Shown here: positions 4,694-52,865 of the stretch, piece after piece | Layout of the letters: every line of letters starts with the position of its first letter | How positions within the stretch are numbered: the first letter of the stretch is position 1 | From: a virus | Strand: one strand, 5' to 3' | DNA: 64,000 nucleotides | Virus record (IMG/VR): IMGVR_UViG_3300026484_000351 | Coordinates: 32,769-96,768 of that record | Notes under the pieces: model-generated | What the model saw: the letters and a program-made list of their open reading frames with translations, nothing else | What the model was told of the DNA's origin: nothing | Databases searched by the model: none | Program-made: the position numbers and the translations under genes

Positions 4694-5166
4694 TGGGGAT
4701 AGAAATAGAAAGAAAATTTTTAGTTAAAATGAAAAAAGGGCCAATGATAAGTAATAGAAAATATGAAATAACTCAAGGTTACATTTTAAATTTACCTGAA
4801 AAAGTTATAAGAATTAGAATATTTGATAATAGTACAGCTTATATAACTATTAAAGGTAAAAATGAAAATATGACAAGACCAGAATATGAGTATAATATTC
4901 CCTGCGCAGAGGGTGCAGAACTTATAAAAGTAATGTGTACAGATATTATCACTAAAACGAGATATATATGCAATGTGAAAAATAGTAAATGGGAAGTTGA
5001 TTTTTTCCACGGAGATAATGAAGGTTTAATTGTCGCAGAAATTGAGTTAAAAGATGAAGATGATCCTATAGATTACCCAGAGTGGATAGGAAAAGAAGTA
5101 ACTGGCAAGAAGAAATATTATAACAATAATTTAATTAAAAATCCTTATAAAGATTGGAGTAAATAA
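4693..5166 (+). CDS. CYTH-domain (triphosphate tunnel metalloenzyme) protein
   Basis: EIERKFLV, R.EYEY, WEVD.F, AEIEL motifs. Confidence 0.92.
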   Translation: MGIEIERKFLVKMKKGPMISNRKYEITQGYILNLPEKVIRIRIFDNSTAYITIKGKNENMTRPEYEYNIPCAEGAELIKVMCTDIITKTRYICNVKNSKWEVDFFHGDNEGLIVAEIELKDEDDPIDYPEWIGKEVTGKKKYYNNNLIKNPYKDWSK

Positions 5167-5408
5167 TGGAAGTTTATGCAGATAAACTAGGCATTCCACT
5201 AAATGTCGGAGATAGAGTTATAATAGCCAGTGGTGAAACACAAGATTCTTCTATTTATTTAGGAACAGTTAGTGAATTATCTGTATCAAGATATGGTTCA
5301 AAACAAGTTAAAGTAAAAAAAGATGGTGGTTCAATAAATAAAAGAGAACCTGAAGATGTTTTAAGTTTAGTTATTTATGGGAATAATTGTCCCGAAGTTT
5401 TTATATAG
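5166..5408 (+). CDS. PE-tag family protein (ends NCPEVFI), KOW/SH3-like start
   Basis: LNVGDRV motif; C-terminal tag. Confidence 0.75.
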   Translation: MEVYADKLGIPLNVGDRVIIASGETQDSSIYLGTVSELSVSRYGSKQVKVKKDGGSINKREPEDVLSLVIYGNNCPEVFI

Positions 5409-5416
5409 GAGATAAT

Positions 5417-5758
5417 ATGGCAGATATTTTAAGTCAAGATGAAATTAATGCTCTTTTAGATATTCCTGATGAAAACTCAGGTGAACCAGATTTTGGTTCA
5501 CCTGAGTTTAAAAAATTATCAGATGCTTTTAACAAAGCATTTCACAAAGTATTTAAGAGAACAGATTTTTATAGAGAAAAAGTGGAACAGAGTGGTTATA
5601 TTCCTAGAATCCGGGGAACAAATCCTAAAGATATGATGGACAGTTTAAAGTGCGAAGAAGAATATTTTCAGAGTACATTAAAGAATTATAAAAAATTTAA
5701 AGAATTTCACAAGAAATTTAAGAAGATAGCAGATGAACAACCTGAAATTTTTATTTAG
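5417..5758 (+). CDS. PE-tag family protein with N-terminal FliM-like CheY-binding peptide
   Basis: AGGAG RBS, then MADILSQDEINALL; ends EQPEIFI. Confidence 0.8.
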   Translation: MADILSQDEINALLDIPDENSGEPDFGSPEFKKLSDAFNKAFHKVFKRTDFYREKVEQSGYIPRIRGTNPKDMMDSLKCEEEYFQSTLKNYKKFKEFHKKFKKIADEQPEIFI

Positions 5759-6714: not shown

Positions 6715-8007
6715 ATGAACATAACACAAGTATTACCTATAATGGCGGCAAGTAAAAAGACGGGCGATGTTGTACTAATGAGAGGACTGCATGGAATAGG
6801 TAAAAGCGCTATAACAGTACAATATGCAGATCAGTATAATCTTGGTCTAGAGATATTAATATTATCTCTAATGGAACAAGGCGATTTAATCGGAATACCA
6901 AACATTACTAATAATACAACTACTTGGGCAGCACCTGACTGGTTAAATAATTTAAGAGATAAAGCATGGCCTAAAAGATTTAATTTTGAAGATTTAGAAT
7001 TTAAAGATAAAAATTTTGAAGAAGAAGTCAACAAACATTCAAAAAATGCAATACTTAGAGAAAATTTAAATAAATTATATAACGAGTTTTATAATGTTAA
7101 TTTAATTGAGCCTGTTTTAACAAAACAGGATAATGTTTCTTGTAGATTGTCTAAAGAAACTGTATTATTTGTTGATGAATATTCAAGAGCTGGTGCAGAC
7201 ATACATAACAGCACAATGCAATTAATATTAGACAAAAGACTTCATAATCATGTATTGCCTTATGTTAATGGTGTACAAACACAGATAATTGCTGCAGATA
7301 ATCCCGCTGACGGTGATTACCATGTAACTGAATTAGACCCAGCCAAATTAGATAGATTTTTAATTATTGATGTAGAAGTTGATGCAAAAGCGTGGTTGGC
7401 TTGGGCAAGAGAAAATGAGGTTAATTCTATTGTAAGAGATTTTATTATGAATAACCTAACAAAAATCCATTATGTTCCGGAAGACCAAAGTCAAACAGGA
7501 GCAACACCGAGGTCTTGGACTATGCTAGGAAAATTTGTAAACCTTTTTGAAACTATTCCTGAAGAAAGTATTTTTCCAATTATTAGAGGTAAAGTGGGTA
7601 GCTCATTAGGAGCACAATTCTATACATATTACAATGATTATAATAAAAATGTAAGTATTGAAGACATTCAAAAGATTATAGACCAAGAATTCTTTAAACA
7701 AGGCGATAATATTGACTTAGAGAAAATTGGAAAAGTTGTTAAGGAACTAACAAAAGAAATGGAAGGCGTAACTAAAATGGAGTATGCAGAAGAATTATTT
7801 TCGGCCATTAAAACTGAAATTAACGATGCTAAAGGGGTTGAAAATGTAATCCATGTTCTTGGCTTTTTATACTCACTTGATTTGGAAATCCTAACTTCAT
7901 TACTTAAAGAATGGAAAAACAATGAAAAAGAAGCATTTTATGGATTAATGAAACTTGATCCTAAGAAGGCACTTGCCTTAAAAATTAAAAGTAAAGTTCA
8001 AAAATAA
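6715..8007 (+). CDS. MoxR-like AAA+ ATPase
   Basis: Walker A GLHGIGKS, Walker B LFVDE, A.NP...LDPA..DRF, TPRSW sensor. Confidence 0.9.
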   Translation: MNITQVLPIMAASKKTGDVVLMRGLHGIGKSAITVQYADQYNLGLEILILSLMEQGDLIGIPNITNNTTTWAAPDWLNNLRDKAWPKRFNFEDLEFKDKNFEEEVNKHSKNAILRENLNKLYNEFYNVNLIEPVLTKQDNVSCRLSKETVLFVDEYSRAGADIHNSTMQLILDKRLHNHVLPYVNGVQTQIIAADNPADGDYHVTELDPAKLDRFLIIDVEVDAKAWLAWARENEVNSIVRDFIMNNLTKIHYVPEDQSQTGATPRSWTMLGKFVNLFETIPEESIFPIIRGKVGSSLGAQFYTYYNDYNKNVSIEDIQKIIDQEFFKQGDNIDLEKIGKVVKELTKEMEGVTKMEYAEELFSAIKTEINDAKGVENVIHVLGFLYSLDLEILTSLLKEWKNNEKEAFYGLMKLDPKKALALKIKSKVQK

Positions 8008-8255
8008 TGAATAAAATACTTTTAAATGATGTTTTAAAAGTTAAAAATGATTTTTGGGAGGGAAGGAACCCAGAAATTATAGGTTTAGTATCAGAAGTTC
8101 ATACCGATTCTAAAGTATATTTTATGAATTTTATAAATGGTATAGATGCACTCCCAACTGTTTCTAATGGGTTTTATATTAAAGAAAATGATATAATTGA
8201 AAATTTTGGAAATATCAAAGTTTTTAAAGATAAGTATCCAGAATATTTTTTATAA
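8007..8255 (+). CDS. PE-tag family protein (ends KYPEYFL)
   Basis: Coupled to the AAA stop codon (TAATG); C-terminal tag. Confidence 0.8.
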   Translation: MNKILLNDVLKVKNDFWEGRNPEIIGLVSEVHTDSKVYFMNFINGIDALPTVSNGFYIKENDIIENFGNIKVFKDKYPEYFL

Positions 8256-8434
8256 TTTTTCTTATGAGCATAAGTTAGATAGTTATGGAAAAATAAATAA
8301 TAAAAATATGTTGGTCGATTATGGCAACTAAAACAAGTCCGGGTATAGGTGATTTTCTACTACACTCAAGTAAATCTGGTAGAAATATGATAGTTGAGAT
8401 TATGGAAATTTTTATAACGGATTCTTGTAGTGTT

Positions 8435-8596
8435 ATAATAGCAAAGAAATATAAATTTATATAAAGAATATAAATCTATATAATAGTATAAAAAGTTATA
8501 CTATCCTTATTTACTGCTTCTAAGTAACTTCTATAGAACAATTTCTATAGTGGTATAAGAACTCCACAGTCATTAATTTTTTATACTGGTTAGGTA
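8435..8596 (-). ncRNA. putative TnpB omegaRNA/right-end region
   Basis: Non-coding IS end downstream of tnpB with several hairpins; nearly identical at 53121-53284. Assignment rests on known TnpB biology. Confidence 0.5.
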
Positions 8597-9775
8597 CTAT
8601 TCTATCCTAGCCAGTCTTAATGCTTCATTTAGTATGTTTATAGAAGCATTTATATCTCTATCTTCTTCAAAACTGCATTCAGAACATGAGTATATTCGCT
8701 CTTCGAGCGATAAACTCTCTTTTACTGAACCACATCTTGAACAGGTTTTAGAGGAAGGATAATAAGTATCTATTCTAGATATACTAACTTGGTTTTCGTT
8801 AGCTTTATACTCTATTTTAGATACTAAATCACTCCATGCTATATTAGATATAGCTTTAGACAATCTTCTATTTTTAATCATATTTTTTACTTGAAGACTT
8901 TCTAAACCTATAAAATCATATAGATTGATTAGTTTTTTGGATACCTGATGATTTATAGTGTTTCTTGAATTCTTTATTTTATTATGCACCCTAGCTACTT
9001 TTAATCTAGCTTTATTTCTATTTTTGCTTCCTTTCTTCTTTTTACTTAGTTTTCTTTGTTCTAATTTAAGTTTTCTTTGGTACTTATATGTTAATTTATG
9101 ATTTTCTATAGTATATCCATCAGAACATATTATCATATCTTTAAGACCTAAATCTATACCTACTTTCTTATTGGTTTTCTTTCTATTATTCTTTACTTCT
9201 ATCTTATGTGTTATGGTTATTCAGTACTTATCTAGGTTATCTTTTTCTATAGTAAAACCTGTTATTTTACCTATATTATGGTTTGTTTTATGTTTCTTAA
9301 ATTTTATTTTATGGTCTTCTTTAGTATAAGATGACTTATTGCTTTTATTTAATTGTATATGGTTATCTTCTATTTTAACTCTAGAACCAGCCTTCATACC
9401 TATAGTCTTTTTAGATGTCTTTTTACTCTTAAATTTAGGATATCCTCTATCTGGTTGTTTTATAAATTCCTTCATACCAAGATATAAATTAGATAAACTA
9501 GATTGTATAAAATCATTAGGTAATTTATTAATAAAAGAATATTCTTCTTTTAATTTAGTACTAAAACCTACTATACCAGTTTGATTAGGTATCTTAGGTC
9601 TCACTTGACCTTTATTTTTGCCTTTTTCTATAGTGTACACACCAAAATAATTATCTTGTATCTTACCTAAAACATTATTATAGGTAAATCTATAGAGGTT
9701 AAATTGTTTATCTAATAATGCTTTTTGTTTAGCATTAGGATATAGTCTATATTTGTTTGTTCTTACTAATTCCAT
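8597..9775 (-). pseudogene. tnpB: TnpB RNA-guided nuclease with one in-frame TGA at 9221-9223
   Basis: KYRLYPN N-terminus; reading through the TGA gives KY*ITIT...VGIDLGLKD (RuvC-I), then E.L.V, SSKTCS.CG, C..C...DRD.NAS.NI. Confidence 0.9.
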
Positions 9776-9808
9776 ATTTAACCCCTTTATATTTATTTAT
9801 ACAATTAT

Positions 9809-10408
9809 TTATATAATATTATTTTTAAGATTTTCTTGTACAGATTTTAACATCTTTCTTCTATTACTATACATTTTCATACTAAAATGATGTATTATAG
9901 ATATTAAATCCTGTGTTAATTCAGTTTGAAAATCTTCTTCTTTGGTAAAATTTATATATACTATATCTGTTCCATAACTACTAAACCATTTTTCTATATA
10001 ATTATAGCCAAATCTAGTAAGTCTATCTTTATAAGAAATATATATAGTATCTATATTACCATTTTGTACTTCTTTAATAAGAGCATTAAAACCCTTCCTA
10101 TCTTCATTCATTCCAGAAGCTATATCTTTATATACCTTATCTACTATAATACCTTTAGAAGCAATAAATTCCCTTAATATTTTTTCTTGCTTTTCTAAGT
10201 CTTCTTTTTGTTTAGTATTACTTACTCTACAATATATAACTTGATTTTTATCTTTGGGTTTTGTGAGCATTAAACTATCTATATCATATAAGAAATTCCT
10301 ACTATTTAATTCTTTGTATTTAACCTTTCCTTGTCTTCTATAATTATTTAAAGTTTGACTTGTAATGCCCAAAATCTCTTTTATTTTCTTAGCGTTTATA
10401 TAACTCAT
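9809..10408 (-). CDS. tnpA: IS607 transposase (N-terminal HTH + serine recombinase)
   Basis: YCRVS, D.ASG, DRLTRFG, EL.QDLISII..FS.KMY. Confidence 0.95.
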   Translation of the reverse strand: MSYINAKKIKEILGITSQTLNNYRRQGKVKYKELNSRNFLYDIDSLMLTKPKDKNQVIYCRVSNTKQKEDLEKQEKILREFIASKGIIVDKVYKDIASGMNEDRKGFNALIKEVQNGNIDTIYISYKDRLTRFGYNYIEKWFSSYGTDIVYINFTKEEDFQTELTQDLISIIHHFSMKMYSNRRKMLKSVQENLKNNII

Positions 10409-10622
10409 TTATTTCCTTTTATATTTATTTATATATTAAGTAATTTTATTATATAATTTATTATAGATAGAAAGTTATTAATTATAGGTGCAAAATAATG
10501 TTTATTATTGGAGAAAAAGGTCCGGCACCTCTTAAAGGTACTATTGCTTATGTTACTAATTATGATTTATGGATAAATTGCAATTTAGAAGAAATCCCTA
10601 GTAAATATCCGGAGGTATATAT

Positions 10623-11102
10623 TTGAAAATAAATGAATTAAAAATAACTCACACCAATGGAGATTTATATTCCGGATATACGATTGAACTTAACAATATT
10701 ACTAAATATTTTGAACACAATGAGAAATTTCAAGAAGCAGGAATGTTCACAACTAGAAAAATGAAACAACTTTTAGAGGACCCAGAATTCCTAGACTTTG
10801 TAATAAGTAATTACAAGTCTTCAGAACCAGTTGTTGATTTTGATTCTCTAATAGTAGAAAAGGGAGTATCAAAATCAATGCAGGTGCTATTTTATCGTTC
10901 TAGAATAGCAATGAATTATTTTGGAGTGATAACCGAAATGTTAATGAAACTCCGAAATCGAAAAACGATTTTAATTAAACTAGAAGACCCCTTAAAAAAC
11001 TTTAATATAGAAACAATCGTAAAACTACAAAATAAAGAAGAAATGAAGGAGTTTTTTGATTATCAATATATTGAAAACAAATACCCGGAGATGTATATAT
11101 GA
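10623..11102 (+). CDS. PE-tag family protein (ends KYPEMYI)
   Basis: TTG start overlapping upstream stop; C-terminal tag. Confidence 0.75.
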   Translation: MKINELKITHTNGDLYSGYTIELNNITKYFEHNEKFQEAGMFTTRKMKQLLEDPEFLDFVISNYKSSEPVVDFDSLIVEKGVSKSMQVLFYRSRIAMNYFGVITEMLMKLRNRKTILIKLEDPLKNFNIETIVKLQNKEEMKEFFDYQYIENKYPEMYI

Positions 11103-11365
11103 AAAAAAGAGAAGTATTAAAAGGTGATTATGTTTTAATAAAAGACCGTAATGATATTCAGCATGTTGTAAGAGTAGATGCTGTTGTAAAAATAGATACG
11201 ATAAAACCTTCAAAAAAAGTCCAAGCGTATGCAAGTACTATTATTAAAAGTATAGATAAAAGTAATCTTAATACCACCACATTTTATGATAAAGATGTAC
11301 AACTAATATTAGGAGCTATAAATGCTCGAACACTAGAAACAGAATATCCTGAGATATTTCTATGA
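11099..11365 (+). CDS. PE-tag family protein (ends EYPEIFL)
   Basis: ATGA coupling; LKGDYVLIK start; tag. Confidence 0.8.
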   Translation: MKKREVLKGDYVLIKDRNDIQHVVRVDAVVKIDTIKPSKKVQAYASTIIKSIDKSNLNTTTFYDKDVQLILGAINARTLETEYPEIFL

Positions 11366-11631
11366 TTGGTAAATTTGTATTAATAAAAACAGATAATATT
11401 ATTGAAAAAGGTTCGAAGCACTCAGAAGATCAACCTTGTTATTTTGTGGTAAATATAATAGAAAAGAGTAAAATTGGCAGAGATTGGAAATCAAAAGTTC
11501 TTTGGTTTTATGATGTTGCATATAATGAATTACATTTTTTTAAAAAAGATATATTGTTTGAATTTGAAAAAGAACCATCTTGGAGAGAGATGGAAAACAT
11601 GGAAGGAACACATCCAGAGTACTGGTTATAA
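11362..11631 (+). CDS. PE-tag family protein (ends THPEYWL)
   Basis: ATGA coupling; tag. Confidence 0.8.
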   Translation: MIGKFVLIKTDNIIEKGSKHSEDQPCYFVVNIIEKSKIGRDWKSKVLWFYDVAYNELHFFKKDILFEFEKEPSWREMENMEGTHPEYWL

Positions 11632-11974
11632 AGGATTAAAAATAGTTTATGCAATGGTAGATGACCAACTGAATATTTTAAAAATATATTCAGAAAAGGG
11701 TTTAGATGACATTAGAAAATTAAGAACTATCCATGTAAGTAAATTTGAAAAATTAAAATTTAATGGAAATTATGGAAGTTCAACTGTTTTTCCGTTTTAT
11801 GATATTAATGAGGCAAAAATAGTTACTGCTATTAAACAGGTTCAGGGATTAAAGGAACAAGCAATTAATTATGAGAATAACGACTGGAAAATTAATGAAA
11901 ATTTCAAAAGTATAGATAAAACTCAAGAGTGGTTGAAAAAGAAGGAAAAAATTTATCCAGAGTACTTCGTTTAA
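11474..11974 (+). CDS. PE-tag family protein (ends IYPEYFV); true start probably near 11640-11655
   Basis: AAGGA at about 11630; tag. Confidence 0.7.
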   Translation: MAEIGNQKFFGFMMLHIMNYIFLKKIYCLNLKKNHLGERWKTWKEHIQSTGYKGLKIVYAMVDDQLNILKIYSEKGLDDIRKLRTIHVSKFEKLKFNGNYGSSTVFPFYDINEAKIVTAIKQVQGLKEQAINYENNDWKINENFKSIDKTQEWLKKKEKIYPEYFV

Positions 11975-11981
11975 TCTTATT

Positions 11982-12003
11982 TTAATATTTATTATGTTAT
12001 AAT
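11982..12003 (+). promoter_or_regulatory. Early-type promoter
   Basis: TTAATATTTATTATGTTATAAT. Confidence 0.75.
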
Positions 12004-12254
12004 TATTATAGAAAAACACATAAAGGTTATATAATGACAAAAGCGATAAACAACTACAGAATAAGTATTAATTCAAATGACAGATTAACTGGAGAGTTTA
12101 CAGGTGGAAAAGAATATTTTGAAACTGAAGCAGAAGCAGTGATAGTTTTTAATAAATTTGTTTTATAAGAATTAGCACCAAATAATAACTTTCTATTTAT
12201 AGAGAAATATATAAAAATGAAATTTTAGCAAGTTTTGATACAACAGGAATATAA

Positions 12255-12875
12255 ATGATACATAATTTTTTAATAGAGTCTTTGAATGATATTGAAGGTA
12301 TTAATAAAATACAGCATAAACTACAAGATACTTTGTTAAGACCAGCAAAAATCCCTAAGGGAACAGCGGCATTATATTTTAGTGCAAGTGAACTTTCTCG
12401 AATAGTTACTAAATTTTTAGATATTAAAAAGAAGTTTATTGAATTAGATTTATTTAAAGATGAGTTTGATAGATGTAATTATTTTAAAGTTTCTGAATTA
12501 GATACACTTACTTTAATAGAACATAATTTGATGCTTTGGGATTTAAATTATGAAAGTTTATTTGCCACTTTAAAGTATGAAATAAACGATTTAACAGAAA
12601 GAATAAAAAGAGCACCATTAAATTGGTATAATAAGCATGCTTATTTAATAAATAATGAGACTTATATTGACAAAAAATATTTTAGTATTTACAGAATAGT
12701 TGATAAAAATTGGGATACTTTAACAATCACCTTAGAATGTTGTAAGTATAGTACCCATTCGAAAAGTCTTTCAATAGATATAGTTAAAATTAAATGTGAT
12801 AGTATTAGAGATATATATCAAGAACAGTTTTTAAGTGAAGAAATAGGGAAGATTTACCCCGAATGGTTTTTATAA
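12255..12875 (+). CDS. PE-tag family protein (ends IYPEWFL)
   Basis: ORF directly upstream of the vWA gene; tag. Confidence 0.8.
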   Translation: MIHNFLIESLNDIEGINKIQHKLQDTLLRPAKIPKGTAALYFSASELSRIVTKFLDIKKKFIELDLFKDEFDRCNYFKVSELDTLTLIEHNLMLWDLNYESLFATLKYEINDLTERIKRAPLNWYNKHAYLINNETYIDKKYFSIYRIVDKNWDTLTITLECCKYSTHSKSLSIDIVKIKCDSIRDIYQEQFLSEEIGKIYPEWFL

Positions 12876-12884
12876 GGAGAAATA

Positions 12885-14228
12885 GTGGAAAAAGCAACAG
12901 TAGAGAAATTATATAACGAGCAGGATAGGGAATGTATAGATTCCACCTTTGCTAATATGTTTTCTAGTCCAGCATACAGAGAAGATTATGTTTTTTATGC
13001 TCATATATTGGCGCAATGTAAAGTAATTATGACAAGCGATGTTGATTTAGCAGGAGTAAATTTTACAATTAACAAGTATAACCTTTTTATTAATCCAGAA
13101 AGATTTCTTGAATTACCCCTTTTGGAAAGAATGTCAGTACTTAAACACGAATCGCTTCATATTCTTTATGGGCATATTTCAAGAAAGGGAGACAGAAACC
13201 ATAAATTATTCAATAACTCTTCAGATGTTGCAATTAACCAGCTTATCACGAGAGAACATTTACCTGAAGGCTGTCTTTACCCTGATACTCTTGAAAAGGC
13301 TCTAAAGGAACAAGGTTATAAAATAAAAGTACCTGAAATGCTTTCAGCAGAACATTATTATGATTTACTTCCTTCAGAAATAAAAGATAATGCCGAGAAT
13401 GGACAATGTAATAGTGGAGAAGGAAATCCTCAAAATTGTGAAAAATGTGGTGGAGCTGGTAAAGAAGAAGACGGAAAACCTTGTAAACATTGTAATGGAA
13501 CGGGTAAAGAATTCTACAAAGGTTTATTTAAAGATAATCCACTTGATGACCATAGCAAATGGAATGAGTCAGAAGGAGAATCTGACTTACAACAGGACAT
13601 CACAAAAAGAATGATTGATAAAAGTATTGAAAAATCAAGAGGAAACACGCCTTCTCATTTAGAGTATTTTATGGAATTATGGGGGAAAAAAGCACAAATT
13701 AGTTGGAAAAAAGTTCTTAGAAATATCGCAAGTAATAAAAAAGCAAATAAAGTAACAACTATTATGAGAAAATCAAGACGGTTCCCAAATAGACTTGAAA
13801 TTAGAGGCCATAAGAAAGACAAAATCTTTGATATTGTAGTTATATTAGATGTTTCGGGGAGTATGTCAGATAAAGAAATTATTACTGGACTGGCAGAAAT
13901 TCGTGAAGTAGCAAAACTTACGGCAAGTACTGTTAAAATTATTCAAGTTGATACAGAAGTGCATGCAGTAGAGGATTTTACGCCAGGCAAATTTAATAGA
14001 AGTGCAGGTGGTGGAACAGAAATGCTACCAGGATTTAGATACATTAAGGAGAATAAGGTATCGCATGATGCTATTATTTTAATTACAGATGGATGGATAG
14101 AGGATATTTCATACTGGGCAAAAGAAGGTGTAGCACCAAAATGTCCTTTAATGATTCTTAGCACTGAAGCAGATATTGATGTTTCAGGATACAGAAATTA
14201 TAGATTTTTCAAACTAGATCAAGCGTAG
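12885..14228 (+). CDS. DUF2201-type metallopeptidase + vWA protein with inserted CxxCxGxG zinc finger
   Basis: HESLH (HExxH), D.AINQ, CEKCGGAG/CKHCNGTG, MIDAS DVSGS, GGT, ITDG. Confidence 0.9.
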   Translation: MEKATVEKLYNEQDRECIDSTFANMFSSPAYREDYVFYAHILAQCKVIMTSDVDLAGVNFTINKYNLFINPERFLELPLLERMSVLKHESLHILYGHISRKGDRNHKLFNNSSDVAINQLITREHLPEGCLYPDTLEKALKEQGYKIKVPEMLSAEHYYDLLPSEIKDNAENGQCNSGEGNPQNCEKCGGAGKEEDGKPCKHCNGTGKEFYKGLFKDNPLDDHSKWNESEGESDLQQDITKRMIDKSIEKSRGNTPSHLEYFMELWGKKAQISWKKVLRNIASNKKANKVTTIMRKSRRFPNRLEIRGHKKDKIFDIVVILDVSGSMSDKEIITGLAEIREVAKLTASTVKIIQVDTEVHAVEDFTPGKFNRSAGGGTEMLPGFRYIKENKVSHDAIILITDGWIEDISYWAKEGVAPKCPLMILSTEADIDVSGYRNYRFFKLDQA

Positions 14229-14238
14229 GAAAAACATT

Positions 14239-14502
14239 ATGAATTATTATGAAAATGCTAATATGCAATTTGAAAAAAGAGAACCAATTAGATATTATTT
14301 TGATGGTAAAGATCTCAAAGGAATTTATAATATAGATTCTGGAAAAAATCTAAAAAAATCTATTTTAAAAAGAAAATTCAAGATAGGCTCATTAAAAAGT
14401 GTTGATATAGCCGAATATAGAGAACTAGGATTATTTCATAGTTATCATAAAAGTATTTCAAAAGAAAAGGCAGAAAAATTATATCCAGAATTTTTTATAT
14501 AA
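14239..14502 (+). CDS. PE-tag family protein (ends LYPEFFI)
   Basis: C-terminal tag. Confidence 0.8.
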   Translation: MNYYENANMQFEKREPIRYYFDGKDLKGIYNIDSGKNLKKSILKRKFKIGSLKSVDIAEYRELGLFHSYHKSISKEKAEKLYPEFFI

Positions 14503-14511
14503 GGAAAAAAT

Positions 14512-14793
14512 ATGAGTTTAAAGAATATTAAAGTATTTAATCAAAATGAATATATTGGTAAAATTATCAAACTTCAAATGAAAGGTACTAACAATATAGG
14601 TTTTTATGAAGTTGTTAAATTTAACAGTTATATATCTTGTAGATTAATTTATACTATTGAGAAAGGAACAATAAGAAAACAATTTAAAACTAATAGATGT
14701 GTCTTATTTGACATTAAAGATTTTTTTAATAGTGAATTCTTAAATTGTAAACCAGAGGAATTTGAAATTAAATACCCTGAATATTTTATATAG
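14512..14793 (+). CDS. PE-tag family protein (ends KYPEYFI)
   Basis: C-terminal tag. Confidence 0.8.
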   Translation: MSLKNIKVFNQNEYIGKIIKLQMKGTNNIGFYEVVKFNSYISCRLIYTIEKGTIRKQFKTNRCVLFDIKDFFNSEFLNCKPEEFEIKYPEYFI

Positions 14794-14801
14794 GAGAGAA
14801 A

Positions 14802-15017
14802 ATGAATGAATTAGATAAATATTTTAATAAAAAAATGTCATTCAAAGACATATTTACTAAAGATGGAAGTGGTTCTTTTAGTGAAGATTTTGATGTCCGT
14901 ACTATAAAGGACAGAAAAATGGAAAATATAAAAAATTATATCAAAGAACATTATGATATGAGTTTGGATGAATTAGATGAATTTATAATGAAATATGAAC
15001 CTGAAAGGACTGTATAA
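14802..15017 (+). CDS. PE-tag family protein, variant (ends YEPERTV)
   Basis: P-E at -5/-4. Confidence 0.7.
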   Translation: MNELDKYFNKKMSFKDIFTKDGSGSFSEDFDVRTIKDRKMENIKNYIKEHYDMSLDELDEFIMKYEPERTV

Positions 15018-15460
15018 TGGGTAAAATCTTATACGCAATTAAACCAATAGGTGTCACAAAGGGGTTTGGGCGAGTATATAACAAACAGTTATATATTGGT
15101 AAGTATGAAGTTATTAATGGTACTGACATTAAATTAGTAGAAGTGCAGGACTTTAATAAAAATATAATTAAAAGACATTCATTTCCAGCGTCACTAAAAT
15201 ATGGCTCATACAATGGAATACAAACAGAAGATGTTGGTAGTGAAAATATCTATTCTGGAATGCCCAACACCAATTCGGTAATATTATTTGTAACATTAGT
15301 CGAAGCCAAATTACAAAAATTAATAGATATAAAATATATTAAGATATATTTTGAAAAGGAACTAAGAAAACTTCAAGAAAGAGCAGAAAATAATCTACCT
15401 AAAAATATTGAAGAAATTTTTGAGGAATATAGTGGTAAATACCCGGAATATTTAATATGA
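15017..15460 (+). CDS. PE-tag family protein (ends KYPEYLI)
   Basis: C-terminal tag. Confidence 0.8.
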   Translation: MGKILYAIKPIGVTKGFGRVYNKQLYIGKYEVINGTDIKLVEVQDFNKNIIKRHSFPASLKYGSYNGIQTEDVGSENIYSGMPNTNSVILFVTLVEAKLQKLIDIKYIKIYFEKELRKLQERAENNLPKNIEEIFEEYSGKYPEYLI

Positions 15461-16020
15461 TTAATTCAGGTGAGCATTTTGAAAATTATATTAGTCACAA
15501 AGATATTAAAATTTATTTTGATAACAATAAAGATAAAACCCAAATGAAATTATTTACCTCTTATTATGGATATATAACTGTTAATGGCAGAAAAACATCC
15601 CTTCAAGAAGATTATAAAGTTGAACCAGTTGAAATTGTATTATCTGTAGAAAATAAAGAACTTTGTGACCCGTTCAGAAATATGGATAATCTTATGAATG
15701 GATTAGATGAAAAACATAATACAGGTTTAAGCTCAGATAGTTTTAAAAACCCCGAGTTGACAGAATGGCAACCTTTACCCAAAGATACATTAACCTATTT
15801 TGATTGGCATGTAACTTTAACAACTCAAAATTCAGATATAGAAATTGATAAAGGAATTATAGAAAGACTTAAATTTTTTCATACAATGGAACAGGCAGAA
15901 ATGAATTATATTAAAATGATGGAATATAAATTTAAAGAATTAGGAATATTTGAAGCATTTGATAAATATAATGAATTATATAATTCATTAAGTAATAAAT
16001 ATCCTGAAGAATTTATATAA
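15457..16020 (+). CDS. PE-tag family protein (ends KYPEEFI)
   Basis: C-terminal tag. Confidence 0.8.
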   Translation: MINSGEHFENYISHKDIKIYFDNNKDKTQMKLFTSYYGYITVNGRKTSLQEDYKVEPVEIVLSVENKELCDPFRNMDNLMNGLDEKHNTGLSSDSFKNPELTEWQPLPKDTLTYFDWHVTLTTQNSDIEIDKGIIERLKFFHTMEQAEMNYIKMMEYKFKELGIFEAFDKYNELYNSLSNKYPEEFI

Positions 16021-16060
16021 AAATGAACAATTACTTAAAAAACTTTATTTAAGGAACTAT

Positions 16061-16258
16061 ATGAATACAGAAATAATTATTGAACCTTTAAATTTTCAAA
16101 GCAATTATTTTATTTGTGAAGTAAGATATAAAGTTGGTAAAAGTATAGTCGTTGCCGAAGGAATTGTAATGCTTACATTAAAAGACTTAACTAAAACAGT
16201 TCCTTTGCATTGTACTTTAAAGAACTTTGAGGAAGAGCATCCAGAGTTTTTCTTATAA
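16061..16258 (+). CDS. PE-tag family protein (ends EHPEFFL)
   Basis: C-terminal tag. Confidence 0.75.
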   Translation: MNTEIIIEPLNFQSNYFICEVRYKVGKSIVVAEGIVMLTLKDLTKTVPLHCTLKNFEEEHPEFFL

Positions 16259-16432
16259 CTGGATACAATTATCAGAGAATAAGTGGCATTTTTGAAGATA
16301 GAGAAATATATTATAATGTAGAAATTCTTAGGGAAGAGAATGGATGCAATATTTGAAAATCAATTTGAATCCTAAAACTCTATAATTAAATTAATGAAAA
16401 GGGCTGTCCGGAATGTTCTATCTAAAGTTATT

Positions 16433-23651: not shown

Positions 23652-23743
23652 GATAACTAAAGGAAAAAGTTAAAAAATATTTACAAATAAGTTGATAAAA
23701 ATTATCCAGAAATACTAATATAATCTCACTTTTTAATCTTGTT

Positions 23744-52301: not shown

Positions 52302-52576
52302 ATGAAAACAAAAAATATTTTTTATAAAAAAGGTTTTAAAGCTTATATTTTTAAGAAATTAAATAGCAGGATTTATAGAACAAAAGGCGAATCTTCTAAA
52401 ATTGGTTTAGAAATAGAACTGGGCGATATGTTTTTTGAGAAAGAAGATTATTGAGATGAAGTAGAATATAGAGCAATGCAAGCATTTATAAATGCTTTTG
52501 GTGATTTAAGACTATATGCTTTTGAATATAGGCCTATAGGAGAATAGAAACTTACACCCCTGAATTGTTTATTTAA
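52302..52576 (+). pseudogene. direct repeat copy 2; decayed PE-tag gene (ancestral end ETYTPELFI)
   Basis: TGA where copy 1 has TGG, plus a 1-nt loss near 52540. Confidence 0.8.
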
Positions 52577-52586
52577 AGGAATATAA

Positions 52587-52865
52587 ATGAATATTAAAAT
52601 ATTTAGAGAAGACTTTAGTGCATTTAATTTATTAGAACAAAATGAATTACTTTTATATTGTAAATTTTTTCTTAAATTGAAAATAAAATCTGCTGTTGCT
52701 AAAAAAGATTTTAATTCTATTTATTTTGACATAATGAGGGAACTATCTGAATTTGAAAATAAACTAATTCATAAGTTCAGAAAAGAAAAACTTCAATATA
52801 TAAAAATACAGAATAATATAAATTATAATTACATTAGAGATAAATACCCTGAAGTTTTTATTTAA
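52587..52865 (+). CDS. PE-tag family protein (ends KYPEVFI)
   Basis: AAGGA RBS; C-terminal tag. Confidence 0.8.
   Translation: MNIKIFREDFSAFNLLEQNELLLYCKFFLKLKIKSAVAKKDFNSIYFDIMRELSEFENKLIHKFRKEKLQYIKIQNNINYNYIRDKYPEVFI

Follow-up and report, generated by a model that had tools for sequence, protein, structure and literature searches.

The window, a 64-kb stretch of a viral contig (G000), raises the question of why so many of its small genes should end in the same few residues, and of whether an ATPase and a peptidase encoded among them are what reads that ending. By stop-to-stop ORF analysis, 17 ORFs of the window end in P-E-x-x-x-stop, and the whole 96.8-kb contig has 18 tail-bearing ORFs with Pro exactly at position -5; in both counts all are on the + strand. 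The consensus in the window is six residues long, [Y/H]-P-E-x-[F/Y/W/L]-[I/L/V]-COOH, and a broader form, [Y/H/F]-P-E-x-hydrophobic-[I/L/V/F]-COOH, follows a short amphipathic helix. The register is strict: Pro-Glu placed one residue nearer to or further from the end is found in 0 and 0 of 729 ORFs, and no ORF of G000, G004, or G032 has it shifted by one residue. Conservation reaches back to about -14, positions -13 and -10 being hydrophobic and -9 and -7 basic. The Pro codon varies freely at its third position, the Glu codon is GAA or GAG, all three stop codons are used, and none of the bases 3' of the tag is conserved. Since synonymous and stop codons vary, selection acts at the level of the protein.

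An earlier note on this DNA placed 13 of the 17 tagged genes in 8007-16258, around the genes for an AAA_5 ATPase and a zincin-vWA protein, and that count holds, with 12 strict tags and one weak. The coupling of one of them to the ATPase stop codon is likewise borne out, as the start of the first tagged ORF (8007-8255, KYPEYFL) overlaps that stop as TAATG at 8007. An IS607-like insertion on the - strand follows within the array (8597-10408; Pfam Resolvase, HTH_OrfB_IS605, OrfB_IS605, and Cas12f1-like_TNB), with a serine recombinase at 9809-10408 and TnpB as two ORFs at 9221-9775 and 8597-9136; it does not belong to the tag system. The 42-residue ORF at 10498-10626 (KYPEVYI) is perhaps the 3' remnant of a gene that this element interrupted. 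Further tagged ORFs lie at 10623-11102 (KYPEMYI), 11099-11365 (EYPEIFL), 11362-11631 (THPEYWL), 11654-11974 (IYPEYFV), and 12255-12875 (IYPEWFL), the last of these encoding 206 residues directly 5' of the peptidase-vWA gene and having a homologue in G001. On the other side of that gene are 14239-14502 (LYPEFFI), 14512-14793 (KYPEYFI), 14802-15017 (the weak, degenerate tag YEPERTV, ending PERTV), 15017-15460 (KYPEYLI, 147 residues, of a family that is conserved in G032 and phiKT1024 and retains the tail at 23% identity), 15457-16020 (KYPEEFI), and 16061-16258 (EHPEFFL). Four more lie outside the array, at 1566-1850 (LPEFFI), 5166-5408 (CPEVFI), 5417-5758 (QPEIFI, with the N-terminus MADILSQDEIN), and, far away, 52587-52865 (KYPEVFI). 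One tagged protein of the window begins with a FliM-like CheY-docking peptide.

The bodies that carry the tail are unrelated to each other: blastp sorts 207 tagged proteins into 177 clusters, and only about five of 96 have any Pfam match. They are mostly ORFans of 60–200 residues and account for up to about a quarter of the genes in a genome. The form of the tail is uniform in a given genome and differs between genomes, its last residue being L in 58 of 59 tags of G039 (YPEYYL), I in 51 of 54 in G004, and F in 4 of 4 in G064, and G060 has N[YH]PELLL. Uniformity within genomes combined with difference between them is what would be expected of one co-evolving reader in each phage. A search of the literature found no description of the tag, and on balance we lean toward regarding the tail as a previously undescribed protein address label, a portable C-terminal module.

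The two larger genes of the array belong to recognizable families. The ORF at 6715-8007 (+ strand, 430 residues) encodes a MoxR-type AAA+ ATPase, matching Pfam AAA_5 over residues 20-215 (32.1 bits against a cut-off of 22; 1.4e-7) and phrog_1297 (9.7e-56), with no match in the PDB by sequence. Its Walker A (GLHGIGKS), Walker B (FVDE), sensor-1 Asn (in AADNP), and Arg finger (in DRF) are conserved across the clade. The ORF at 12885-14228 (+ strand) encodes a zincin metallopeptidase (DUF2201_N) fused to a DUF2201 vWA domain (Pfam 66 and 44 bits, the DUF2201_N cut-off being 23.2 bits; phrog_1314), with two DnaJ-type CxxCxGxG zinc knuckles in the linker. Its HExxH motif (H88, E89, and H92) and the predicted third zinc ligand, H97, do not vary among 117 homologues. 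Nor do the five MIDAS residues D322, S324, S326, T378, and D402 (DxSGS..T..D), so that the earlier description of an intact metal site stands. The AF2 model (pLDDT 84) confirms a predicted Rossmann-like I-domain fold for the vWA domain, which resembles the CMG2 vWA (Foldseek E ~5e-5; VIA Z 12.1, rmsd 2.8 over 132 residues) and the CD11b I-domain (Z 11.7). The two genes are neighbors in many relatives.

If this pair reads the tail, the two should travel together, and at the level of whole genomes they do. Both genes are present in all eight of the tag-bearing genomes searched for both (G000, phiKT1024, G004, G015, G032, G034, G039, and G043). A tag-first search of IMG/VR with a two-tag DNA pattern recovered four tag-rich contigs that are at least 54% complete, G004 (100%), G015 (85%), G043 (79%), and G032 (54%), and all four have both genes; neither gene occurs in any of the seven false positives of the pattern, which lack ORF-end tags. 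Four tag-rich fragments (G010, G080, G081, and G082) show no pair, but all are 46% complete or less. The pair occurs in 314 of 50,697 phage records counting any lineage, and in 11 counting the close lineage, a base rate low enough that four co-occurrences out of four would be hard to obtain by chance. The pair-first sample, with tags counted within 10 kb, gives the same picture: ORF-end tags are found near 27 of 39 close loci (vWA protein at least 31% identical; 124 tags) versus one of 41 distant loci (30% identical or less; Fisher p = 6e-11). Among the distant lineages, tags are at background level in PBS1, D505, RaK2, JohannBauhin, and DC4, and none were found in Vequintavirus or the Staphylococcus jumbo phages. 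At least three phage backbones that are unrelated to one another thus combine the tag with a single clade of the pair. G004 is a podophage with an AD45-like backbone and 54 tags, phiKT1024 and G000 are T4-like, and the only ORFs common to the three (blastp, 1e-5) are the ATPase and the vWA-peptidase. The hosts of tag-bearing phages differ (Vibrio, a probably Alteromonas-like host, and a low-GC host), and the core of the tail is identical. Most tag-bearing phages are marine or aquatic, so that genes drawn from a common pool could make the co-occurrence look stronger than it is.

The earlier note had tied the pair to the tag partly by its position inside the array. The tie survives for genomes; the position is a local accident, because in phiKT1024, G015, and G034 the two genes are separated by 46–100 kb and tags occur genome-wide, with both genes retained. 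The Vibrio phage phiKT1024 has ~82 tags, on about a quarter of its genes, spread over the whole genome; its ATPase and vWA genes are 46 kb apart, and five of the 82 tags lie within 10 kb of the ATPase. The link is real, but as a property of the genome and not of the locus. The co-occurrence that the note had expected across phages also holds in one direction only, and the pair without tags, which the note itself had named as a refuting case, does occur. The pair is present in each tag-rich genome that is 54% complete or more, but also in the whole genome of AD45-P1, which has no tags, and in at least four tag-less lineages nested in the same clade (G051, 92% complete, G059, G061, G065, and the G052/G066 lineage). 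The association is thus one-way, and since the pair is kept where tags are absent, its core job is independent of them.

As the tail is found only where one lineage of the pair is present, the pair is the best candidate for its reader. We marginally favor the explanation that the PE tail is an address module working only with the phage's own MoxR-type ATPase and zincin-vWA protein, with the tagged proteins as their clients, and from the distribution of sequences we infer that the pair would bind the tail physically. Two sites can be proposed within this explanation. The tail could sit on the MIDAS face of the vWA domain, with Glu -4, as the note had proposed, or the terminal carboxylate coordinating the metal and the hydrophobic triad filling an adjacent pocket, which we consider possible but not probable. 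It could instead dock on the concave side of the ATPase ring, at its post-sensor-1 loops, in the way that the NorD C-terminus docks on NorQ, which is about as good a candidate or marginally less likely. Residue covariation and decay in tag-less lineages single out no site in either protein, and the post-sensor-1 loop (YxVxELDPA) is conserved, with variants that do not track tags. The earlier note also offered two inserts as docking surfaces. Both are real, the ~60-residue ATPase insert consisting of 63 residues between Walker A and Walker B and the DnaJ-type zinc finger lying in the peptidase, but the role fails: the zinc finger is found only in G000 and G021, and the ATPase insert is absent from phiKT1024, G002, and G015, all of them tag-rich, but AD45, which has no tags, has it. 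As neither is conserved among tag-bearing phages, neither can be the docking surface. A client bound by its tail would be remodeled by the ATPase before the fused peptidase cut it, so that early proteins might be switched off or recycled, or a host protein held by the client might be acted on. The more specific proposal, that each of dozens of rapidly evolving tagged bodies binds a different host protein and its tail hands that target to the MoxR/vWA-peptidase for ATP-driven remodeling or cleavage, we regard as rather unlikely; if true, it would amount to adaptor-mediated targeted proteolysis in viral form, with adaptors taking up as much as a quarter of the genome.

Several known systems resemble parts of this arrangement. 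The pair itself matches the MoxR AAA+ and metallopeptidase-vWA co-chaperone pair of "group 2.2" jumbo phages (Iyer et al. 2021; PMC7824862) in its AAA_5 ATPase, its zincin fused to vWA, and its Pfam and PHROG families; a role in virion assembly was proposed for that pair and no client tag was mentioned (PMC7824862), whereas the clade described here comes with a proteome-wide tail. The annotation of RaK2 describes its copies of the pair as similar to N4 gp24 and gp25. In the NorQ/NorD system of denitrifiers, also a MoxR ring with a vWA partner, the hydrophobic extreme C-terminus of NorD docks on the ring, and a cryo-EM study of 2026 found that its last two residues are required for binding to the NorQ post-sensor-1 loops and that their deletion abolishes co-purification (PMC13036017). 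The NorD vWA domain resembles the phage vWA model (Z 9.5), and no match between the phage pair and NorQ or NorD was found by sequence. The docking tail of that system is on a single vWA partner, whereas dozens of unrelated proteins end in the PE tail and the phage vWA protein is not among them. MIDAS sites have been described as binding extended peptides (PMC7159879). Ligand capture of this kind (integrin-collagen, CMG2-PA, midasin-Ytm1/Rsa4, and CbbO-Rubisco) shares with the phage protein the DxSxS..T..D residues and an I-domain-like fold, and the tag has an invariant acidic residue. We know of no MIDAS ligand that is a fixed-register C-terminal hexapeptide common to many proteins; the nearest case is the C-terminal carboxylate of C3b at the MIDAS of factor B. 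Short C-terminal peptides that bring many proteins to one partner are familiar from ssrA/SspB/ClpXP degrons, SSB tails, and the tails of T4 gp43, gp55, and gp33 on the gp45 clamp, all of them different from the PE tail in sequence. To our knowledge there is no system in which a quarter of a phage's proteins bear such a tag, or in which a MoxR/vWA-peptidase pair accompanies it.

Many phages and bacteria encode MoxR/vWA pairs, but clients are known for few of these. If the PE tail is a client label, the substrates or adaptors of such a machine could be named in many phages from a single sequence rule, which would also give a first functional handle on tail-carrying phage ORFans, of which phiKT1024 by itself has about 80. 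Phages of the phiKT1024/Va1/pv27 group are in culture, so the question is directly testable, and the tail could be usable as a portable engineering tag.

The most serious competing explanation, which we nevertheless judge unlikely, is that the tail is read by something else, whether on the host side (the membrane, the sliding clamp, or a protease of the Clp, Lon, PDZ, or tail-specific type) or another phage protein that has diverged beyond detection, and that the MoxR/vWA pair is linked only indirectly, managing the consequences or traveling in the same accessory gene pool. Tag-less members of the clade are indeed common, tags are not consistently clustered at the pair (the 5 of 82 in phiKT1024), no site in either protein tracks them, and both the contig and phiKT1024 carry further proteostasis genes, phiKT1024 being annotated with a Clp-like endopeptidase. 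Such a reader would have to accommodate the restriction of the ORFs common to G004, phiKT1024, and G000 to the pair alone, the appearance of so rare a pair in every tag-first contig, and the identity of the tail core despite the different hosts.

The tail might also be the structural end of a small C-terminal helical module for self-association or folding, with the pair as its assembly chaperone, which we find doubtful. MoxR/vWA pairs are classically assembly chaperones (PMC7824862, PMC7159879), Iyer et al. (2021) proposed that this pair assists assembly, and the conservation out to about -14, with its hydrophobic and basic positions, fits this reading. The AF2 model of the protein of 15017-15460 places the tail, with good confidence (pLDDT ~83), at the end of a two-helix hairpin, where it may be partly packed rather than free. 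However, an invariant Pro-Glu kept at an exact distance from the free C-terminus is more typical of a recognized terminus than of a packing motif, the shortest tagged ORFs (42–65 residues) are too small for the hairpin, and a last residue that is I, L, or F according to the lineage suggests that a partner has a pocket for it.

It is very improbable that the motif arises from a nucleotide signal at the ends of genes (a Shine-Dalgarno sequence with ATGA translational coupling, or a recombination cassette) and is no feature of the protein: at ATGA overlaps the Pro-Glu codons are mostly CCGGAG or CCAGAG, which puts GGAG or AGAG 8 nt before the next ATG, but 58%–83% of tags have no such overlap and use CCAGAA or CCTGAA, tag-less ORFs with the overlap have neither Pro nor Glu at -5 and -4, and the free third positions and unconserved downstream bases also speak against it. 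The Shine-Dalgarno use of the Pro-Glu codons is a secondary codon choice.

The proteins that the ATPase–peptidase pair is linked to are small, mutually unrelated, and end in a common tail, [Y/H]-P-E-x-[F/Y/W/L]-[I/L/V]-COOH. The pair is already known (Iyer et al. 2021, PMC7824862), and recent work found a MoxR ATPase of coliphage Bas54 to be needed against a defence system (PMC13716836). For the tail we found no prior description: full-text literature searches with the motif strings returned nothing relevant, and the genome paper of Pv27, of the phiKT1024 group, mentions neither the tail nor MoxR. The two large genes in the window are as the earlier note described them, an AAA_5 (MoxR-type) ATPase (6715–8007) and a DUF2201_N zincin fused to a DUF2201 vWA domain (12885–14228), with HExxH and MIDAS motifs. 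The HExxH with its third His and MIDAS residues D322/S324/S326/T378/D402 show no variation among 117 homologues. In the predicted structure the C-terminal domain adopts an I-domain-like vWA fold, matching CMG2 at Z 12.1 and the vWA domain of NorD at Z 9.5; searches of NCBIfam and of PDB sequences with both proteins gave nothing useful. At ~27% GC the window is AT-rich, and almost every gene in it is on the + strand. The viral contig of which it is the right-hand 64 kb (G000; 96.8 kb, 37% complete by CheckV) has terminase, neck, topoisomerase II and helicase genes in common with the T4-like Vibrio phage phiKT1024. Among cultured phages, those whose pair is closest to this one are the Alteromonas AD45 podophages (32%–34% identity) and, in Vibrio, the phiKT1024/Va1/pv27 group (31% for the ATPase and 38% for the vWA protein).

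The proposed link between tag and pair was borne out by searches from both directions. IMG/VR was searched, blind to the pair, with a DNA pattern of two tags spaced by one small gene. Because so short a pattern falsely matches PEEP-type repeats, matches were confirmed by ORF-level counts, and those in G017, G018, G025, G031, G030, G024, G007, G023 and G087 proved to be such repeats. All four true tag-rich contigs that are at least 54% complete (G004, G015, G043 and G032) carry both pair genes; G004 is a complete genome of 103.5 kb with 54 tags. The tag-rich fragments G021, G002 and G001 have one or both genes, and four others (G010, G080, G081 and G082) have neither, all of them being no more than 46% complete and so uninformative. 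Neither ATPase nor vWA-peptidase is present in seven repeat-artefact contigs. Conversely, among 80 IMG/VR loci with vWA-peptidase relatives, each taken with 10-kb flanks, ORF-end tags occur in 27 of the 39 at 31% identity or more (124 tags) versus one of the 41 at 30% or less (Fisher p = 6e-11). Whole-genome tag-pattern counts in PBS1, D505, RaK2, JohannBauhin and DC4 are no higher than control level. As only 0.6% of deposited phage genomes carry the pair in any lineage, and 0.02% in the close lineage, these sequence counts put the co-occurrence far above chance.

Any such link must be one at the level of the genome, since the clustering seen in the window, where the pair had been read as a candidate machine lying inside its tag array, is not conserved. 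In phiKT1024 the ATPase (at 128.0 kb) and the vWA-peptidase (at 81.9 kb) are 46 kb apart, and ~82 + strand ORFs, about a quarter of all genes, end in [Y/H/F]-P-E-x-[F/L/M]-[I/V/L] and are present across all non-structural regions. The two genes are separated by 48 kb in the complete genome G034 and by 100 kb in G015. The backbone of G004 (IMGVR_UViG_3300032257_000002) is that of an AD45-like podophage: against AD45-P1 (NC_021532.1), identity is 63% for the portal and 70% for the major capsid. The only ORFs it has in common with both T4-like tag-bearers (blastp, 1e-5) are the ATPase and the vWA-peptidase; a third gene common to G004 and phiKT1024 is a homing-endonuclease-like ORF. At 1–5 kb in the complete 290-kb genome G060 (IMGVR_UViG_3300032287_004484), far from the pair, lies a run of 17 small genes that all end in N[Y/H]PEL[L/I/M]L, which may be a tandem paralogue array.

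The reverse case, a pair without tags, which the earlier note had set against its own proposal, does occur. AD45-P1 carries the pair and not a single tag in its whole genome, and tag-pattern counts are at control level in G051, G059, G061, G065 and the G052/G066 lineage. Trees of the ATPase and of the vWA protein both place tag-bearers and tag-less phages in one well-supported clade. Because the tag-less lineages are nested within it several times, the tags were probably ancestral to the clade and then lost repeatedly, with the pair retained. The dependence appears to be one-way: tags need the pair, and the pair can do without tags. Within a single family, G004 has 54 tags and AD45-P1 none, and the AD45 ATPase and vWA protein lie on long branches.

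The tagged proteins themselves have little else in common. Once stripped of their tails, 207 of them, taken from eight genomes, form 177 clusters by blastp, and about five of 96 have a Pfam match of any kind. Conservation upstream of the tail is weak (hydrophobic at −13 and −10, basic at −9 and −7). In one conserved tagged family of 147 residues, members as little as 23% identical still end in K[Y/F]PEY[L/M/F]I; the AF2 model of this family has a beta-rich body and two helices, with P-E-Y forming a short turn. Each genome has its own flavour of tail: YPEYYL in G039 (final L in 58/59), YPELFI in G004 (final I in 51/54), N[Y/H]PELLL in G060, and a final F in all four tails of G064. Tails that are alike on unrelated proteins of one genome yet differ from genome to genome are what one reader co-evolving with them would leave. 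Less probably than the pair, that reader would be a host protein or an undetected phage protein, with the pair linked to the tail only indirectly; less probably still, the tail would be a structural or assembly element and the pair its chaperone. The tagged ORF at 5417–5758, which has no Pfam match, starts MADILSQDEIN..., similar to the N-terminal CheY-P docking peptide of FliM, a start that would fit tagged proteins binding host targets.

The pair itself is the leading candidate reader, and both of its members are plausible on the strength of precedent. MIDAS sites are reported to bind extended peptides via an acidic group (PMC7159879), the role that the earlier note proposed for the tag Glu. 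The other precedent is NorQD, whose vWA partner attaches to the post-sensor-1 loops of the ATPase by its extreme, hydrophobic C-terminus; deletion of two C-terminal residues abolishes the complex (PMC13036017). The two inserts put forward as alternative docking surfaces are excluded because neither is conserved among tag-bearers. The zinc-finger insert, two DnaJ-type CxxCxGxG knuckles at residues ~175–205 of the peptidase-vWA protein, lies in an acidic Gly-rich interdomain linker that AF2 models with low confidence and is present, among the relatives examined, in G000 and G021 alone; the tag-rich phiKT1024, G002 and G015 lack the ATPase insert, which the tag-less AD45 has. Columns that partition with the residue favoured at the last position (I or L) are equal in number in the vWA protein (262, 341, 418) and the ATPase (250, 261, 290), and G060, which was out of sample, agrees with both sets, so that covariation does not tell the two apart. 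Tag-less lineages also retain the MIDAS, HExxH and Walker motifs; their conserved columns show no signal of decay, only K250 of the vWA protein being altered in three lineages, and their apparent post-sensor-1 changes are also present in the tag-rich G039. Complex prediction of the vWA-peptidase with Mg, Zn and the 147-residue tagged protein scored nil, which gives no answer either way. Directly downstream of the ATPase in G032 (L108, 7137–7988), phiKT1024 (L003, 13169–14308) and G002 (15397–16422) is a conserved tagged protein of 280–380 residues with no Pfam family match, which may be a third, constant component.

By stop-to-stop ORF analysis, P-E-x-x-x-stop ends number 17 in the window and 18 in the contig, on the + strand only, with the window consensus K-[Y/H]-P-E-[Y/F/V/I]-[F/Y/W/L]-[I/L/V]-COOH; a Pro-Glu one residue off register ends none of 729 ORFs. 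Selection on the tag acts at the protein level, because the Pro third base takes all four forms, Glu is GAA or GAG, all three stop codons are used, and the bases after the stop are not conserved. A nucleotide-level signal (Shine-Dalgarno or translational coupling) is excluded. When a tag shares an ATGA overlap with the following gene, Pro-Glu is mostly CCGGAG or CCAGAG, which places GGAG/AGAG 8 nt before the ATG as a Shine-Dalgarno sequence, but most tags have no ATGA overlap and use CCAGAA or CCTGAA, and ATGA-overlapping ORFs without a tag lack Pro-Glu (codon use compared in tags of phiKT1024, G004 and G032; window examples at 10609–10626, 11085–11102 and 15443–15460).

The array at 8007–16258 holds 12 strict tags and one weak tag, its first gene overlapping the ATPase stop codon as TAATG. 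Inside it, on the − strand, is an IS607-like element (8597–10408) with a serine recombinase (9809–10408) and a TnpB that is divided between two ORFs (9221–9775 and 8597–9136) and may be a pseudogene with a frameshift. Two short ORFs flank the element (8321–8464 and 10498–10626) and may be the halves of a single tagged gene; relatives P0002 and P0003 are 83%–85% identical. Bodiless tag-ending frames of 10–14 codons (NYPEILI, YTPELFI and CPECSI, at 23691–23723, 52532–52576 and 16390–16425) are probably relics of disrupted tagged genes.
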